A stretch of DNA of 64,000 nucleotides from assembly GCA_028690445.1 (NCBI GenBank), contig JAQVBE010000009.1, forward strand, positions 10,874 to 74,873, read 5' to 3'. Position 1 is the first letter of the stretch; every line of letters starts with the position of its first letter. The DNA is from Aliarcobacter sp. (GTDB taxonomy: Bacteria; Campylobacterota; Campylobacteria; Campylobacterales; Arcobacteraceae). Under the pieces are notes generated by a model that worked only from the letters and a program-made list of their open reading frames with translations, ran no database searches and was not told the DNA's origin. The position numbers and the translations under genes were made by a program. This document shows, piece after piece, positions 1-6,629 of the stretch.

Positions 1-602
1 TCAATAGGAATCATTAGTGTTTGGTCTAAAGATTCCTTATATTTTTTATCAATTGATATTAAAAGTTTTTGATTAGTTTTATTTTTTTGATATAGAAAGC
101 CACTCCTATCAAAGCTAGTCCTATTCAAAAGTTCTAAAATCGTTTTTAGAGGAGCAGCTATATTGGGAGATTTTCGGCCAATATGAATAATAAATTGTCG
201 TAATAGTTTTTTGTTTTCTAATACCTGAAATAGACTTTTATTTTTCTCAAAAGCATACATTGAAAGATATTTGATAGCTAGAAATTTTATAGATATTGAT
301 CTTCCTGCAGGAAGAGTTTTTAATCTTCCTTGACCAAAAGTCATATAAAGATAAGTTAATCGTTTAGCTTCTTGAATTAGTTCAGAACAAAGTATATTGT
401 TGAAATAAAGAATATTTTTTCCATTACTATATGGTGTTAAATCCCAAGCACAATCACCATAGTGTGAAAGAGCTTTACCGTCCCTTATTGAAATGATTTG
501 GTTGATAGGAGGTTCTATATGACCATTCTCATCATTATGTTTATAAACGGGAGGTGTATTATCACTATAGTTTAAAAATGGCTGTAAATATATAGAATTC
601 AT
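1..602 (-). CDS. N-terminal 200 aa of a third element gene (IntB-like putative recombinase), partial; not in the ORF track
   Basis: Hand translation is open from ATG at 602 (ATGA overlap with the stop of the 972-aa gene) to base 1: MNSIYLQPFL...SHYGDCAWDLTPY...DQTLMIPI. The YGDxxWD and QTxxIP motifs recall the third gene of integrase trios. Confidence 0.75.
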   Translation of the reverse strand, partial: MNSIYLQPFLNYSDNTPPVYKHNDENGHIEPPINQIISIRDGKALSHYGDCAWDLTPYSNGKNILYFNNILCSELIQEAKRLTYLYMTFGQGRLKTLPAGRSISIKFLAIKYLSMYAFEKNKSLFQVLENKKLLRQFIIHIGRKSPNIAAPLKTILELLNRTSFDRSGFLYQKNKTNQKLLISIDKKYKESLDQTLMIPI

Positions 603-3517
603 GCTAACCTTTCTAATTCATCTAAATCTTTTATCCAATCAAGCCAATATGGTGATAATAAGCCATCATTATAAACTTCTATTTTTGTAGTTGTAATGGT
701 TTGTTTTATTGAAGGTTCTTTTTTAATCATTTCATTAAAAATAGCTTGAATACGGTTAATCCATGGAGTCATTTTTTCTTCATAAAATGATTCATCTTCT
801 GCTTTATCATAAGCTATATTTTCAATGATGTACTGTAAACTTAGGAGTTTTCTAATTTCTTCTTGTTCAGGAAATGTTATAAAGTGCTTGCAAAAAATAC
901 AAGTTTTTGAATCATTACAATTAGCATTAATAGGACTATCTTCATGAAAATTTTTTGGAATTAAATTTTTATCATTTTCACATCCTCCCATTGAACTTTG
1001 CTGTTCTTGCAGAATAGGTTGTTGACTTATTGTATGTTCGTGAAGAGAGTTTAAGAAATTATTTATTTGTAAGCCTAATTCTTTAGAAGTGTATCCATTA
1101 TAGTTGTTGATAAAGGTTGATTTATTATTTTGTAGTACAGATAATGCTATTTTCATATTATGACTATTGAGTGCATCTTTCCCACCATCTTTCCGAATAT
1201 TTCTAGATGTGATGAAAGGTAGTTTATCATCTAAGAAATTTCGTGTGTCATTAAAAATTCTACTACTATTTCCACCTGAAAACTGGGATCTTGTTGTGCT
1301 AGCACTTTTCCCGAATCCAGCTGAAAAGAATAAATATTTGAATTTATTATCATTCAATACAAATTTTCTTAGTAGTAAGAATTTTTTGAAACTTGACATA
1401 AATGCTTTTGGAATTGTAAAGCGGACGGGTTTGTTGCCAGCACGAGGTTTAATAGTTATAAACTCTTTGCGTTCTAAATGCTCAGTTTCATACTCATCTA
1501 TATCAGACCATTCATAAGTACCAAGTATTGAGTCATTGGTACTTGTTAGATAAAGCATACAGATAAACCATGCATCTAAAGCTTTTTTGCCTAGTTGAAG
1601 TCTTTTTTCATGAAATTTATCTGAGTTTAGTTCTTCTAGTTTTTGTAGATTTTTTATTTTTTGTTTTATATATCTATTAGGATACTTGACTTTATTATTT
1701 TTAGCCAAGTTAATTAATTCAGAATCCATTAAAATGGTTCCTTCTGTAGGGTCTATACAATTAATTCCATATTTATTCATTTGGTGATATGGAATTATTA
1801 GATGTTTTGCTAATCCCATAATTATAGCGTGTCCTCTTGGAAGTTGTATTTTGTAAGGGTAGTCTTTTCCCTTTAATAGAAAATCTGCAATTTGATCAAA
1901 TAAATGAAAATAGAAACCAAATGTATAAGAAAAATCTTCTTGAGTGACTTGTTCCATATTTGAAAAAGCATTAGATGATGGAGCTTTTTGTGGAATTATA
2001 TATGAATTATAGTCTTTAGTGATTTCTGATTCATTAACAAGAAACATTCCTGCAAGTAAACTTATCATTCCTTTTTGTTCTATTGAGCAAACAGCATGTC
2101 TTTTTTCTCCTGATTTTAATAGTCTGTGTAAATGAATAGAATAATGATAAAACATATTATTTGCTTCTTTGATAGTCTTAGGAATATAGTCTCCCATCCA
2201 CAAAGCTGCTAAAATCATTCTTGGAATTAAACTCGTGAGTATTGAATGGTTAATCCCTTCACAAGCATTGAGTAAACCTTTAATATATATAGTTCTATCA
2301 TCCTTATATCCATCAGGGTTTACAAATAACCTATTTTTACTATTTGTTTTAGCATTAAGATTATAGGATGAATACATTATATGGGAAAGTGTAAAATAGT
2401 TTACTATTTTAGTTTTTGTGTTAGTAACTGAAATCCCCAACCTCTTATATATAAGTGAATGGTTTGCAGTTTGTATTTTTTGAATAAGTAAATCTTTATC
2501 GATATATAGAATATGTATTTCAGTTAAACCTTTAGAAGTATATTCTTCAATTTGATTTAGCAAATTAAGTTTCCATTCAAATAGGTTTTTTGATAAAAAT
2601 TCAGAATTAAATCCTGCTTTTTTAGAAACAATTCGGGGAGTAATATCTACTTGTTCTTTCACTAATTGTTTAAAAGCTGTTCTACACTGTATTCCATCAA
2701 TCCCTCCCTCTTTTTGCCACTTTCGATCTGCAGCTTTTATCTTAGTTTTAATATCTAATTGCCAAGGGTAATTGGGTTTTTCTATATTTGTTGCTGCGTA
2801 TCCTGCTTCTGTGCATATTGTGTTCAAGTAAGGACGTTCCTGATTTTTAATATACTTATCTAAAATCTTATTAATTACCTTTAGCTCTTTACCTCCTTTT
2901 CTTTGCCATTTTTTGTCTGCCTTATCAATTGCATTTGCAAGACGTATTTGCCATGGATAGGCTAATCGATTTGAACTTAAAAAATTTTGGTATTTGTTTA
3001 TTCCAATTGCTATGTCTTTTTTTATCGGACGTTCTCCATTTTTTATCATTTTTTTTAAAAAATCAAGACTTGTTCTAGCATCTAAACCTCCAAAATTCTC
3101 CCATCTTTTCTGTTCTTTGATTACTAGAGCATAAAGCTCTTTTTGCCAGAAGTATCTTAAATTAGCTTTTCTCAGATACCATGCCTTTACTCCTGCTTTT
3201 TCACAAATTATTTTTGGTTCAATCTTACTACCACTTTTTAGTGCGTCTTGAAGAGATTTGGAGAGCTTTTTAGCTATTTCACCTCCTCCCTCTTCCCAAT
3301 TGTATGCTTCTTTATTTATAAGGGATGACAGTTCCCTTTTCCATGGCGTGTTTAAACATAATTTATGTAAAATTCTTGATGAAACACCTTCAGTGAGTCT
3401 TCCTATCATCTGATGATTAGGCTTTTGAGTACCTTCTTTGACAATATTAAATAATGTCTCATAACATTTTCTGTGTTCTTCGCAGCTAAATATGATTTTC
3501 TCAGATGGTTTCAACAT
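599..3517 (-). CDS. 972-aa degenerate tyrosine-recombinase-like protein (SE CDS2-like) with N-terminal tandem repeats and a C-terminal Cys cluster
   Basis: ITSRNIRK in place of HxxR, NNY near the catalytic Tyr position, C-terminal C..NC..KTCIFCKH; 17-nt overlap with the integrase stop. Confidence 0.7.
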   Translation of the reverse strand: MLKPSEKIIFSCEEHRKCYETLFNIVKEGTQKPNHQMIGRLTEGVSSRILHKLCLNTPWKRELSSLINKEAYNWEEGGGEIAKKLSKSLQDALKSGSKIEPKIICEKAGVKAWYLRKANLRYFWQKELYALVIKEQKRWENFGGLDARTSLDFLKKMIKNGERPIKKDIAIGINKYQNFLSSNRLAYPWQIRLANAIDKADKKWQRKGGKELKVINKILDKYIKNQERPYLNTICTEAGYAATNIEKPNYPWQLDIKTKIKAADRKWQKEGGIDGIQCRTAFKQLVKEQVDITPRIVSKKAGFNSEFLSKNLFEWKLNLLNQIEEYTSKGLTEIHILYIDKDLLIQKIQTANHSLIYKRLGISVTNTKTKIVNYFTLSHIMYSSYNLNAKTNSKNRLFVNPDGYKDDRTIYIKGLLNACEGINHSILTSLIPRMILAALWMGDYIPKTIKEANNMFYHYSIHLHRLLKSGEKRHAVCSIEQKGMISLLAGMFLVNESEITKDYNSYIIPQKAPSSNAFSNMEQVTQEDFSYTFGFYFHLFDQIADFLLKGKDYPYKIQLPRGHAIIMGLAKHLIIPYHQMNKYGINCIDPTEGTILMDSELINLAKNNKVKYPNRYIKQKIKNLQKLEELNSDKFHEKRLQLGKKALDAWFICMLYLTSTNDSILGTYEWSDIDEYETEHLERKEFITIKPRAGNKPVRFTIPKAFMSSFKKFLLLRKFVLNDNKFKYLFFSAGFGKSASTTRSQFSGGNSSRIFNDTRNFLDDKLPFITSRNIRKDGGKDALNSHNMKIALSVLQNNKSTFINNYNGYTSKELGLQINNFLNSLHEHTISQQPILQEQQSSMGGCENDKNLIPKNFHEDSPINANCNDSKTCIFCKHFITFPEQEEIRKLLSLQYIIENIAYDKAEDESFYEEKMTPWINRIQAIFNEMIKKEPSIKQTITTTKIEVYNDGLLSPYWLDWIKDLDELERLA

Positions 3518-5066
3518 TTAAATTCTCACTATTTTGGTTAATAAAGGCTGACTGTGATAGCCATTGAAATAGTTTATCTCCTCGTGAATCATATGCAGAG
3601 TATCGGTCTGATTCATTTTGAGAATACTCAAGATATTGTTGTGTTGTTTTTTCATCAGTATGTCCGGCAAAGTCTTTTAGTATTTTCATTCTTTCATTTA
3701 ATGAGAGTTTGCTCTCCTGTTCCGTTCTTATATTTAAATTCATTAAGCAAGTAGCTCTTAGATAATGAAATTTAAATTTAAATTTAACTTTTTTTGAAAT
3801 ATTATTTGTTATGTAAACTCGTATAGAACCCCCATTTGACATATTTTTATAAAGTTCTTTATTAGGGTCACTTTTCGCTATATAGTATGGATTGAAGTTC
3901 TGCGTTATGAAGACATATTCATCAAGCTCATTCTCTTGTGGATATTTGATATTTAGTCTTCTCTGTGTAGCACGTTTAGATATAATATATGACTGTACTA
4001 TATTCATAAGCCAGCCAGGAACTTGCAAATTGTATCTTTTTTCAAGACCTTTAGCATCAATAAGACTTCCTTCTCCAATTGGAATATAATAAAGTTCATT
4101 TGATACGAATTGTTTATTATATTTATGCCAAATATTAAGGCTTTCCGTAGAGAAGTTTTTTGGGAGCTCATTGATAAAATGTTGTAAGCGTAGTGTGAAG
4201 GTAGTGTCCATTCTTGCAGCCGTAAAAATAGAGAATAGAAAAGAAATCATTATTTCAGGTTGTCCTTGGCTATTTAAAAGTTCAAAGAGTTGTATTTGAT
4301 GTTCTTGTGTCAAAGGTTTTGTGTTTCCTCCATCATTTATGTATCCAACATCTTTATTATATGTTCCACGAATTTTATTCCCTTCATTTGTTTCGACTAT
4401 TAATCCTTTATTATTATTTATTGGTATAAATGCAGCATCAACTTTTCCTGGCATCGAAATACCCTTTCCCAAGTGTAAGAAATTATTGCCAAAATAATCA
4501 TTTACAAATTTATAGAATGAGGTTATTGGATATAAAAGCTTTTTTGCGTAACGAGGTTTGATTTCCTGTTTATTAACTCTTTCTTGCAAGTAATCTCGAT
4601 ACTTGATATTAGGTCTACTAAAAGGACGTTTAGCAACTTTCCAGAAAGGCATCTCTTCTCGTATACTTGGATTACGTTCATATATTAGGTCAAGTTCATC
4701 ATCTCTTTCATCACAAAAAAGTTTATATTTTTGTAATGCTTGAGAATGTTCTTGAATCGTTTTTGAAGGAACTCTTTGATCTTCATTATAAGCAGTATCA
4801 TCTTGAATTAAATGTATAAGGTATAGATTTGCTTCTATCCAAAGAGTATGATCACGGTTCATTACAAATGTGAAATGAGAATAGTATGAAGGGTCATAAT
4901 TCACATGCTCTATCCAATATGTATCAAAAAAAGGTTTCTTATAATAAAGAGGTTTATCTTTCTGATTAAGAACAGGTAGGTAGTTTATACTATATTCAGA
5001 TGTAGGGATAAACAAACGAATATTTGATGATATTTTTTGATTTAGAAGATTATCGTTTAGTTTCAT
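3501..5066 (-). CDS. Site-specific tyrosine recombinase/integrase (IntA-like)
   Basis: Catalytic motifs TAARMDT (R), DAKG (K), FHYLRAT (HxxR), AGHTDEKTTQQYL (H...Y). Confidence 0.92.
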   Translation of the reverse strand: MKLNDNLLNQKISSNIRLFIPTSEYSINYLPVLNQKDKPLYYKKPFFDTYWIEHVNYDPSYYSHFTFVMNRDHTLWIEANLYLIHLIQDDTAYNEDQRVPSKTIQEHSQALQKYKLFCDERDDELDLIYERNPSIREEMPFWKVAKRPFSRPNIKYRDYLQERVNKQEIKPRYAKKLLYPITSFYKFVNDYFGNNFLHLGKGISMPGKVDAAFIPINNNKGLIVETNEGNKIRGTYNKDVGYINDGGNTKPLTQEHQIQLFELLNSQGQPEIMISFLFSIFTAARMDTTFTLRLQHFINELPKNFSTESLNIWHKYNKQFVSNELYYIPIGEGSLIDAKGLEKRYNLQVPGWLMNIVQSYIISKRATQRRLNIKYPQENELDEYVFITQNFNPYYIAKSDPNKELYKNMSNGGSIRVYITNNISKKVKFKFKFHYLRATCLMNLNIRTEQESKLSLNERMKILKDFAGHTDEKTTQQYLEYSQNESDRYSAYDSRGDKLFQWLSQSAFINQNSENLNVETI

Positions 5067-5107
5067 GTATTTGATCCCTTATTTATCTTATTTATTGTAT
5101 CAAATAC

Positions 5108-5144
5108 ACTATTAATTTACTAACAAGTAGTAAATATTAATAGT
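5108..5144. repeat. Imperfect inverted repeat between the element end and the integrase start
   Basis: ACTATTAATTTACTA-acaag-TAGTAAATATTAATAGT (15-bp arms, one with a 2-nt insertion). Confidence 0.6.
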
Positions 5145-5164
5145 AAGCTAACAGGTGTCATTGA

Positions 5165-5290
5165 AACTCTTAAAACTCCAAAATTTATATTATTTGGATT
5201 TCTATATTCTGCAAATGAGAAATGAAAACGGCTTTCTAACCAACCTAAATTTGATGTTCCCATATTTTCTTTTGGTAATTTTTTTAACAT
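5165..5290 (-). pseudogene. 5' fragment (42 codons) of a pirin-family gene cut by the element
   Basis: ATG at 5290 with AGGAG RBS, overlapping the dioxygenase stop. MLKKLPKENMGTSNLGWLESRFHFSFAEYRNPNNINFGVLRV matches the pirin N-terminus (GWLxSxxxFSFAxY...FGxLRVxNDD), then reads unrelated sequence to TAG at 5120. Confidence 0.88.
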
Positions 5291-6060
5291 GTTAACTCCT
5301 TGTCAAAAATAAAACTTTCCATCGAGATATTTGAATACAACATCTCACTATTAAATGATTTTCCTTTTTTATTTATAGCATTTCCAAAGGCTATAAACAT
5401 AGGTAAAAAATGCTCAATCGAAGGATGATTTTTATAAAAATTTATATTTTTTTGAATATTTTTTAACTTTTCTTCTTTTGCATTTTCAACAATATCAATC
5501 ATATCATTATTAAACTCTTTTGCGTAATTTCTTATATTTGGGTTCATACTCATATCACCTAAATTATGAGTAATTCCACCACTACAAATAATCAAAGCTT
5601 CATCTTTAAATTGTTGAAGTTTCTCTCCAAGATTAATTAATTGGTTAATATTATATGAAGTAGGAATACTCATTTGTAGTACTGGAATTTCAAGATGTTC
5701 ATACATTAATGCAAGAACATTCCAAACTCCATGATCATAACTTTTTCTATTTTCATCGATTGAGATATTAATATTCTCTTTTTTTAATTTCTCAATCAAA
5801 TCTAAAGTTAATTTCTCATCACTATTTATCTCATATTTTACTTTATATAATTCATCTTCAAAACCATAAAAATCATACATGATTTTATTTGCTTCCGGAC
5901 TGATGATTTTTAAATCTTTTGTTAAATAATGGGCAGAAAATATAATTATATATTTTGGAATTTCTAAGTTTTGTGCCAATTTAAAAATATTTTTTTTAGA
6001 TTTAATGTCACTTAAAATTATATTTGGTGCGCCGTGTGAAATAAATAGTGTTGGATTCAT
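5284..6060 (-). CDS. DODA-type extradiol ring-cleavage dioxygenase (LigB/YgiD family)
   Basis: FISHGAP, SAHY, YDFYGF, DHGVW, SGGITHNL, HPSIEHFLP motifs. Confidence 0.9.
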   Translation of the reverse strand: MNPTLFISHGAPNIILSDIKSKKNIFKLAQNLEIPKYIIIFSAHYLTKDLKIISPEANKIMYDFYGFEDELYKVKYEINSDEKLTLDLIEKLKKENINISIDENRKSYDHGVWNVLALMYEHLEIPVLQMSIPTSYNINQLINLGEKLQQFKDEALIICSGGITHNLGDMSMNPNIRNYAKEFNNDMIDIVENAKEEKLKNIQKNINFYKNHPSIEHFLPMFIAFGNAINKKGKSFNSEMLYSNISMESFIFDKELTC

Positions 6061-6062
6061 GA

Positions 6063-6629
6063 TTATTGTGCTAAAACACCCTCAACATCAATTGATAATT
6101 TAACCTCATCAGACACAGCAACTCCACCTGTTTCTAAAGCTTTGTTCCAAGTTAAATCAAAATCACTTCTTTTAATTTTTCCATTAAGTGAAAAACCTGT
6201 TCTTTGTTTTCCCCATGGATCTTTAATTACAGAACTTGTTTCTAAATCAAGTTTGATGTTTTTTGTTATACCTTTCATAGTGAAATCACCATAAACTGTA
6301 TCTTTTTCAATTTTTGTTGATTTAAAAGTGATTTTTGGGAATTTAGCCACATCAAACATTTCTTCAGCTTTTAAATGTTCATCTCTTTTTTCATTTACTG
6401 TATTAATTGAAGCAACAACAATTTCACCATTTATTGATTTTAATGTATTAGTTTTTTCATCAAATTCAAAAGTTCCAGCAACATCATTAAACTTTCCAGT
6501 AACATTTGTAATCATCATGTGTTTTACTGTAAAACCTGCATTTGTATGACTTGCATCAACATTATAATTTCCTGCAAATAATGCAGTTGAAACAGCCAGT
6601 GAAGCTAAACTTAATTTTAAAATTTTCAT
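6063..6629 (-). CDS. YceI-family lipid/polyisoprenoid-binding periplasmic protein
   Basis: Signal peptide, VDASHT, HMMIT.V.G.F, RDEHLK, DPWG..R.GF motifs. Confidence 0.92.
   Translation of the reverse strand: MKILKLSLASLAVSTALFAGNYNVDASHTNAGFTVKHMMITNVTGKFNDVAGTFEFDEKTNTLKSINGEIVVASINTVNEKRDEHLKAEEMFDVAKFPKITFKSTKIEKDTVYGDFTMKGITKNIKLDLETSSVIKDPWGKQRTGFSLNGKIKRSDFDLTWNKALETGGVAVSDEVKLSIDVEGVLAQ

Follow-up and report, generated by a model that had tools for sequence, protein, structure and literature searches.

What could five tandem helix-turn-helix (HTH)-like modules do on a recombination protein whose own active site appears incomplete? The question is raised by a 972-aa protein encoded in a 64-kb stretch of an Aliarcobacter sp. 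contig (JAQVBE010000009.1; this whole stretch is the window below, and all positions are counted within it), where a first-pass annotation had noticed five N-terminal repeats fused to a recombinase-like body. Because gene order, gene overlaps and homology fit the definition of SEs (strand-biased circularizing integrative elements), which are built around an intA-tfp-intB-srap operon (PMC10214605), we identify the protein as the Tfp subunit (tyrosine-recombinase-fold protein) of an SE-type module. Profile comparison shows its repeated unit to be homologous to the N-terminal HTH-like module of Srap, the product of the fourth gene of such modules. We propose, with a probability of about 0.6, that the array is a multivalent, basic DNA-binding arm that would play an architectural role on an apparently non-catalytic Tfp subunit. 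The gene and its units, with independent E-values (i-E) from a unit hidden Markov model (HMM) and helices from AlphaFold2 (AF2), are:

599..3517, minus strand: tfp-like gene, an open reading frame (ORF) of 972 aa made up of the five-unit N-terminal array and a standard Tfp body.
3281..3478 (aa 14-79), minus strand: unit 1, i-E 1.7e-13; AF2 helices 13-28, 35-41 and 58-77.
3086..3280 (aa 80-144), minus strand: unit 2, which holds IICEKAGV; i-E 7.9e-19.
2891..3085 (aa 145-209), minus strand: unit 3, i-E 5.3e-18; AF2 helices 144-159, 166-172 and 188-207; net charge +9.
2702..2890 (aa 210-272), minus strand: unit 4, which holds TICTEAGY; i-E 3.9e-19; AF2 helices 210-224, 231-238, 242-246 and 251-270.
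2513..2701 (aa 273-335), minus strand: unit 5, which holds IVSKKAGF; i-E 7.5e-16; best Srap-HMM domain at aa 285-329.

The periodicity was first seen in aa 14-330 (window 2528-3478), and the array as we delimit it covers aa 14-335 with units of ~64 aa. All the signature residues that had been listed are present: tryptophans at aa 59/74, 124/139, 189/204, 252/267 and 315 (one further Trp lies at 113), the W-x14-W-x2-3-GG pattern that closes units 1-4, and the I/V-x3-AG motifs of units 2, 4 and 5. In Smith-Waterman comparisons with 300 shuffles, nine of the ten unit pairs gave z-scores of 4.0-15.3, units 1 and 5 being the sole failing pair (z 0.9). The unit HMM, built from units of diverse homologues, found exactly five domains in the 972-aa ORF (i-E 1e-13 to 8e-19) and none in the other six-frame segments of the window, and together these results bear out the claim of five tandem units. 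Tandem Repeats Finder detected nothing at the DNA level, so that the periodicity is confined to the protein. Between homologues at 51-70% identity, the mean unit score was 180 for units in the same position vs 58 for units in different positions. Judged by these scores, the units are orthologous by position, and since they are, the array is old, stable and position-specific; a recent repeat expansion is rejected on the same ground. It is scarcely credible, then, that the periodicity is a mere by-product of a lysine-rich helical linker with no specific function. Although the unit has no significant database match (neither the unit profile nor the family profile had a significant match in PDB sequence searches, and a word-index protein search with the unit alignment gave no match), pairwise z-scores reach 15, unit positions are conserved over 50% sequence divergence, the unit recurs in distant Tfps at 20-25% identity, and its profile specifically matches Srap.

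This last match deserves particular attention. When an alignment of 51 units was compared with one of 120 Srap proteins, hhalign returned a probability of 92.1% (E 6.1e-7), with unit columns 4-55 aligned to Srap 13-74 across helix A, the following loop and the HTH. The reversed control scored 0.2%, 20 column shuffles at most 1.0%, and the decoys (IntA, IntB, Tfp body and N-terminal domain) at most 1.9%. Among the 392 six-frame segments of the window, a Srap HMM matched only the 972-aa ORF (E 2.6e-4; next best 0.46), and conversely the unit HMM matched Srap proteins at 6e-5 to 1e-3 in a constant register. What the two have in common is a helix-(G-K-P)-helix-turn-helix arrangement around EAG-x3-G-x-L, as exemplified by LTPSIVSQEAGFDSGYLKR in a Srap protein and its counterpart ITPRIVSKKAGFNSEFLSK in unit 5. 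Unit 5 has neither the second Trp nor the GG and is, among the units, the one most like Srap and DUF6262. The Srap family that we collected has 310 members and no Pfam domain, and its hosts include Aliarcobacter butzleri, A. cryaerophilus, Sulfuricurvum, Vibrio and Pseudomonas. SEs require Srap, an auxiliary protein whose N-terminal motif weakly resembles TetR and whose C-terminal part is a coiled coil, and which has been likened to TnpC of Tn554 (PMC10214605). Srap and TnpC, like the array, belong to tyrosine-recombinase transposition modules; however, they are free-standing proteins of ~125-155 aa with one module and a C-terminal coiled coil, whereas here the module occurs five times, joined to the Tfp chain, and each copy has a long helix D of its own that bears Trp.

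The first-pass annotation had compared each unit to the small HTH of DUF6262/TnpC proteins, and this comparison holds in part. The kinship that can be demonstrated is with the module's own small protein, whereas the link to DUF6262, which is the TnpC family (PMC11947258), is suggestive. No other Pfam family is matched by multiple units or by multiple full-length homologues, but DUF6262 stays below threshold in each case: the best of 56 units reached 17.9 bits vs the 29-bit Pfam gathering threshold. The matches come from unit 5 of two homologues (P0002, E 0.0037; P0003, E 0.015), and the window's own five units had no DUF6262 match at E<=10. In another element, DUF6262 adjoins two tyrosine recombinases.

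The predicted structure points in the same direction. We modelled aa 1-345 with AF2 from a nine-sequence alignment (mean predicted local distance difference test, pLDDT, 90.4; predicted template modelling score, pTM, 0.72), and a single unit, unit 2, from an alignment of 56 units (pLDDT 92.4; helices 2-16, 22-29, 33-36/38-40 and 44-63). Each unit is predicted to have four helices, namely a long A, a short B, a turn, a short C and a long D. In the unit model, helix A spans 15-16 residues and leads into a loop in which a Pro is conserved; helix B, of 8 residues, ends in Ala-Gly; a turn of three residues separates it from helix C, which is short and kinked (4+3 residues); and helix D, of 20 residues, bears both tryptophans, after which Gly-Gly joins the next unit. 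The structural periodicity with one HTH segment per unit that had been anticipated is thus what the models give. Nearly all Foldseek neighbours of the single unit are HTH DNA-binding proteins: in the PDB, Rex, TetR-family/SlmA, sigma and lambda cII proteins (TMq 0.42-0.53, with no significant E-value; the TetR/SlmA neighbours at 0.50-0.53), and in BFVD, HTH domains at the N-terminus of phage terminase small subunits (TMq 0.60-0.63, root-mean-square deviation 3.0 A) and one unnamed protein at TMq 0.74. The unit superposes on TetR-family and terminase HTH domains at TM 0.50-0.74 (no significant E-value), sharing with them the succession of long helix, HTH and long helix; these domains, however, occur once per chain and act as dimers or rings, in contrast to the five-fold tandem array. 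The weak Pfam matches of single units (HTH_3, HTH_28, HTH_29, MerR_2 and HTH_AraC) all fall on the B-turn-C segment. We infer the HTH assignment from the model together with these non-significant structural neighbours. The array is also strongly charged, with a net charge of +25 and an isoelectric point of 9.7 vs a net charge of +2 for aa 521-972.

The same structural data could be read differently, with the array as a protein-protein scaffold in which the Srap-type module docks on IntA, IntB, the body of Tfp or the coiled coil of Srap without touching DNA, and in which five copies would fix the stoichiometry of the recombination complex or its oligomeric state. With a pTM of 0.72, the array looks more like a rigid helical solenoid than like a string of independent beads, and the conserved Trp, Trp, GG, Pro, Ala-Gly and Leu look structural. 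Moreover, the left end of the element (see below) has no matching set of DNA repeats, and the published HTH assignment of Srap was of low confidence, 51% (PMC10214605). We nevertheless consider a scaffold unlikely. Units 2-4 are strongly basic, the domains closest to the unit in structure are HTHs that bind DNA, and the hydrophobic-x3-AG-x5-L pattern is typical of DNA-binding HTH motifs.

The identity of the protein as a Tfp is given by its surroundings as well as by its sequence. The genes next to it are:

3501..5066, minus strand: intA, encoding a 521-aa tyrosine recombinase with an H-x-L-R...H...Y motif (BLASTP E 1e-18 to the integrase of L003).
1..602, minus strand: 5' part of intB, which leaves the window at its left end and whose product has 56% identity to the 664-aa IntB of L001.

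The missing part of the operon is seen on another contig (L010), where the same 972-aa protein is followed by a full 663-aa IntB-like protein and then by srap (128 aa). The end of intA overlaps the start of tfp by 17 nt (3501-3517), and the tfp stop codon overlaps the intB start codon by 4 nt (ATGA, 599-602). These overlaps hint at translational coupling of intA-tfp-intB, as has been proposed for SE operons (PMC10214605). The order intA-tfp-intB-srap, co-oriented at one end of the element, is also found in L001, L004, L005, L006 and L008. In a tblastn search against plasmids, matches covered only query aa ~450-968, and the targets were ~645-aa "hypothetical" proteins in the same four-gene layout in Vibrio, Stutzerimonas, Pseudomonas, Cupriavidus and Paraburkholderia. 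All four module proteins match pairwise between the window/L001 and loci L002 and L003. For example, BLASTP gave E 8e-32 between the 972-aa protein and WP_052649168.1 of Stutzerimonas (L003), and E 2e-5 between the Srap proteins of L001 and L003. Idola et al. 2023 (PMC10214605) include the Stutzerimonas pair WP_052649168.1/WP_045424213.1 among the tfp-srap synteny blocks of their Additional file 3. To the extent that gene order and homology of the core module allow a judgement, the element is SE-type. Other hallmarks of SEs are a catalytic RHRY set in IntA and IntB, imperfect inverted repeats at the termini (motifs C and C') with a 6-bp spacer once the ends are joined, and strand-biased circularisation after which the donor site stays occupied.

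The label "recombinase trio" used by the first-pass annotation was therefore imprecise, the module being SE-type with four genes. We also considered and rejected three related classes. A Tn554-type module (tnpA-tnpB-tnpC) is rejected as the Tfp homologue lies between two recombinase genes, and Tn554 has no Tfp counterpart (PMC10214605); GInts (ginA-ginB-ginC-ginD) are rejected as the Tfp-like gene is second here vs third in GInt; and RIT elements, as defined in PMC10214605, are rejected as the proteins have 521, 972 and 663 aa and a fourth small gene follows. No Rfam family matched at the gathering threshold across the window.

Compared with the Tfps described for SEs (PMC10214605), the present protein occupies the same place, since its gene comes second in an intA-tfp-intB-srap operon whose genes overlap and which lies at the element's left end. 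It is homologous to them over aa ~450-968. Those Tfps are reported to have a tyrosine-recombinase fold without the RHRY set (PMC10214605), and the active-site set of the present Tfp appears incomplete too. It differs from them in its five HTH-like units, since the described Tfps are without the 335-aa N-terminal array, and in its host. SEs were found only in Gammaproteobacteria in the published survey (PMC10214605), in contrast to Campylobacterota here, and gammaproteobacterial Tfps have only 21-24% identity to the present one. That the architecture is absent from described SEs, as first supposed, is thus confirmed. Beyond the array, the protein consists of:

1979..2506 (aa 338-513), minus strand: native Tfp N-terminal domain, domain-HMM E 1.3e-37, found in all homologues.
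602..1978 (aa 514-972), minus strand: Tfp body, an apparently degenerate tyrosine-recombinase-like region with a C-terminal Cys4 motif.

The array is accordingly fused to a recombinase-like body, as had been claimed, although this body is that of Tfp, which appears to be a catalytically degenerate member of the module and not a working recombinase. Across 21 diverse homologues C846, C867, C873, C876, R775 and Y806 are invariant. The four cysteines form the motif GGC-x20-C-x5-C-x2-C (aa 846-876, window 890-982). Judging by motif spacing on inspection, N661 stands at the place of the first Arg, and the two His positions are taken by R772 and N797, while R775 (in S-R-x-x-R-K) and Y806 (window 1100-1195) are spaced like the second catalytic Arg and the nucleophile of tyrosine recombinases; the active site of Tfp may therefore be only partly degenerate. 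Since hhalign gave no significant alignment of the Tfp core with the IntA and IntB alignments, the tyrosine-recombinase fold of the body is taken from the literature and from weak Pfam hits. A like motif, GGC...C...C-x2-C, with a similar helix is found in six of seven IntB proteins (IntB aa 577-604 in L001, whose intB lies at 4633-6627), which suggests that Tfp and IntB are paralogues with a common zinc-binding module.

Does the array read DNA at the end of its own element, as the first-pass annotation had proposed? The boundary of the element within the window allows this to be asked at the left end:

5120..5157, minus strand: left terminus, with the first element base at ~5157 (CACCTGTTAGC...), as found by comparison with empty-site contigs.
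5158..5290, minus strand: 5' fragment of a pirin-like gene, the target site; the module starts directly after its first 44 codons.

The host chromosome is Aliarcobacter-like (Campylobacterota), and the element interrupts the pirin-like gene. Four metagenome contigs cross the junction into intact pirin, which places the left terminus at ~5157, and the intact pirin form, ...LRVLNDDIVHAIC, was obtained from loose ends of metagenome contigs. The same pirin site is occupied in the window, in an Aliarcobacter metagenome-assembled genome contig (L004) and in L008, whose Tfps (L004 and L008) have 52-70% identity, and L004 shares with the window the flanking genes from a dioxygenase through carA. The terminus contains two direct repeats of ACYTGTTAG, at 5148-5156 and 5120-5128, and this layout is conserved in L004, L008 and L005. 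Elements with five (window, L008), four (L006) and zero (L005) units all have two terminal repeats 27-28 bp apart (L008 32-74, L005 8396-8435 and L006 8237-8279, with TTGTGAG in L006). Between them lie short inverted repeats whose sequence differs by element. The terminal direct repeats are probably binding sites of the recombinases. With two repeats irrespective of whether a Tfp has five, four or no units, the left end lends no support to the idea that repeated end sites are read by the units. The right end, more than 14.6 kb away, is not on L004 or L010, and an exact 22-mer from the remainder of pirin had no match in JGI metagenomes.

Just inside the left end, upstream of intA, lies a block (TGTATTTGATAYAAT, window 5094-5108, minus strand) that is conserved in the window, L004 and L008 and that also occurs in the L006 and L005 elements, where it follows the two direct repeats. 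It looks like an extended -10 promoter element; a simple sigma-70 scan missed it because it has no -35 match. This block, adjoining the element-specific short inverted repeats, raises the idea that the array is mainly a regulator of the intA-tfp-intB-srap operon, acting through an operator at the promoter or through non-specific host DNA rather than in synapsis. In support of this idea, attL of SEs contains a promoter, and tfp could not be deleted (PMC10214605). However, a Sulfuricurvum element whose Tfp has no units shows the same layout of the promoter region, and a simple operator needs fewer than five different, position-conserved units. We therefore regard a mainly regulatory role as quite improbable.

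We favor the view that the array is a DNA-binding arm because of its HTH-like fold, its positive charge, its homology to Srap and its position-specific helix C. On this proposal, it would anchor or shape the DNA around the recombination sites and would position the apparently degenerate Tfp with IntA and IntB in the synaptic complex, supplying several Srap-type DNA contacts in cis. Because each position of the array keeps its own conserved helix-C sequence, these suggest five different contacts and not five equivalent ones. Its candidate targets would be the right end, the joined ends and the flank of the target site, or else it may bind DNA regardless of sequence. A functional analogy, and no more than that, is offered by the arm-binding domain of lambda-type integrases, likewise an extra N-terminal DNA-binding part, which links core sites and accessory DNA. 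That domain, however, has a different fold, occurs only once and belongs to the catalytic subunit, and while arm-type sites are known for lambda, none was found here, where only the left end was reached.

Several observations weigh against a DNA-binding arm. Neither Pfam nor NCBIfam gave a model at threshold for the whole protein, the five units or aa 330-972; no Foldseek match was significant (best E for the unit 0.52 in BFVD and 1.4 in the PDB), and a search of the PDB with the whole 345-aa array was uninformative (best E 0.66). The predicted helix C is short. The argument from charge is lessened by the fact that lysine-rich proteins are usual in genomes of 28% G+C. At the left end, the non-coding DNA has an equal length in elements with five, four and zero units, and there is no set of sites that matches the unit number. 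Finally, srap is still encoded beside array-bearing tfp genes, and the array is therefore no simple replacement of Srap.

It would be tempting to go further and see in the array a covalent string of Srap-type readers, whose five recognition helices read a composite site (the flank of attB, attR or the joined ends) and thereby set target choice or strand bias. This bolder idea, which keeps the suggestion of target specificity made at first sight, is possible, though we hold it to be doubtful. If it were true, the number and identity of units would be a modular specificity code for SE-type elements, and free Srap and TnpC would act as DNA-bound oligomers.

How did an ordinary Tfp come to have such an array? 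A profile search yielded 660 homologues, most of which have 610-660 aa and align only with positions ~330-970. By this alignment, the array is an N-terminal addition to an ordinary Tfp, which corresponds to aa ~336-972. We scanned the best 150 of the 660 with the unit HMM, thus making the comparison of repeat number that had been called for, and found zero, two, three, four or five units. The window's clade, P0006 and P0019 have five; P0007 and P0008 have four; P0079 and a fragment, P0013, have three; P0026, P0055, P0069, P0073 and P0145 have two; and the ~130 others have none. In a rough neighbor-joining tree of the body, unit-bearing proteins fall into four patches of one subtree with unit-less ones interspersed (for example, P0009 of Sulfuricurvum, 43% identity), and the other half of the tree contains no unit-bearing protein. 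This pattern would fit either an old gain followed by repeated loss and resizing, or repeated gains. Six homologues (P0011, P0051, P0063, P0089, P0102 and P0134) have no HTH units and instead have the native ~175-aa N-terminal domain in two to four copies, so that duplication of the native domain is, by domain count, a second route of N-terminal growth in the Tfp family. A related-loci search with an 8-sequence alignment returned only two genomes.

The element is polymorphic in natural populations, as shown by the empty-site contigs and by element depth below flank depth in metagenomes (8 vs 600-4800 in X5, 183 vs 376-1386 in X9, and ~160 vs ~300 in X2); the empty sites are no demonstration of excision. 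It was found in at least 20 runs from wastewater, landfill and groundwater. Within the pirin fragment of the window, positions 5163-5165 carry a substitution and a one-base deletion relative to other occupied sites (TTTCAATGAC vs TTTTAAATGAC). The cargo beside srap (L010 7350-14617) includes the gene of a Septu-type PtuA-like ATPase (E 2e-57) and two unassigned partners; after these comes a methylase-specificity fusion of type I restriction-modification. L001 has a similar three-gene cargo set, whereas the cargo of L006, with its four-unit Tfp, is arsenic and RND-efflux genes.

Through a tyrosine-recombinase mechanism, genes for resistance and defence are moved by SEs, GInts and Tn554-type transposons. 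The element described here bears genes for phage defence, and it occurs widely in metagenomes from wastewater. In the literature that we searched, we did not find a Tfp with an HTH array, a series of zero to five copies, or a host in Campylobacterota. The locus shows that SE-type modules occur in Campylobacterota (Aliarcobacter and Sulfuricurvum), beyond the Gammaproteobacteria of the published survey. The natural fusion of two to five Srap-type modules to Tfp argues that Tfp and Srap act on the same partner, most likely the DNA near the recombination sites. An array that is presumably soluble and is modelled with confidence, with a natural series of zero to five copies, may serve as an experimental handle on the Srap-type accessory module.

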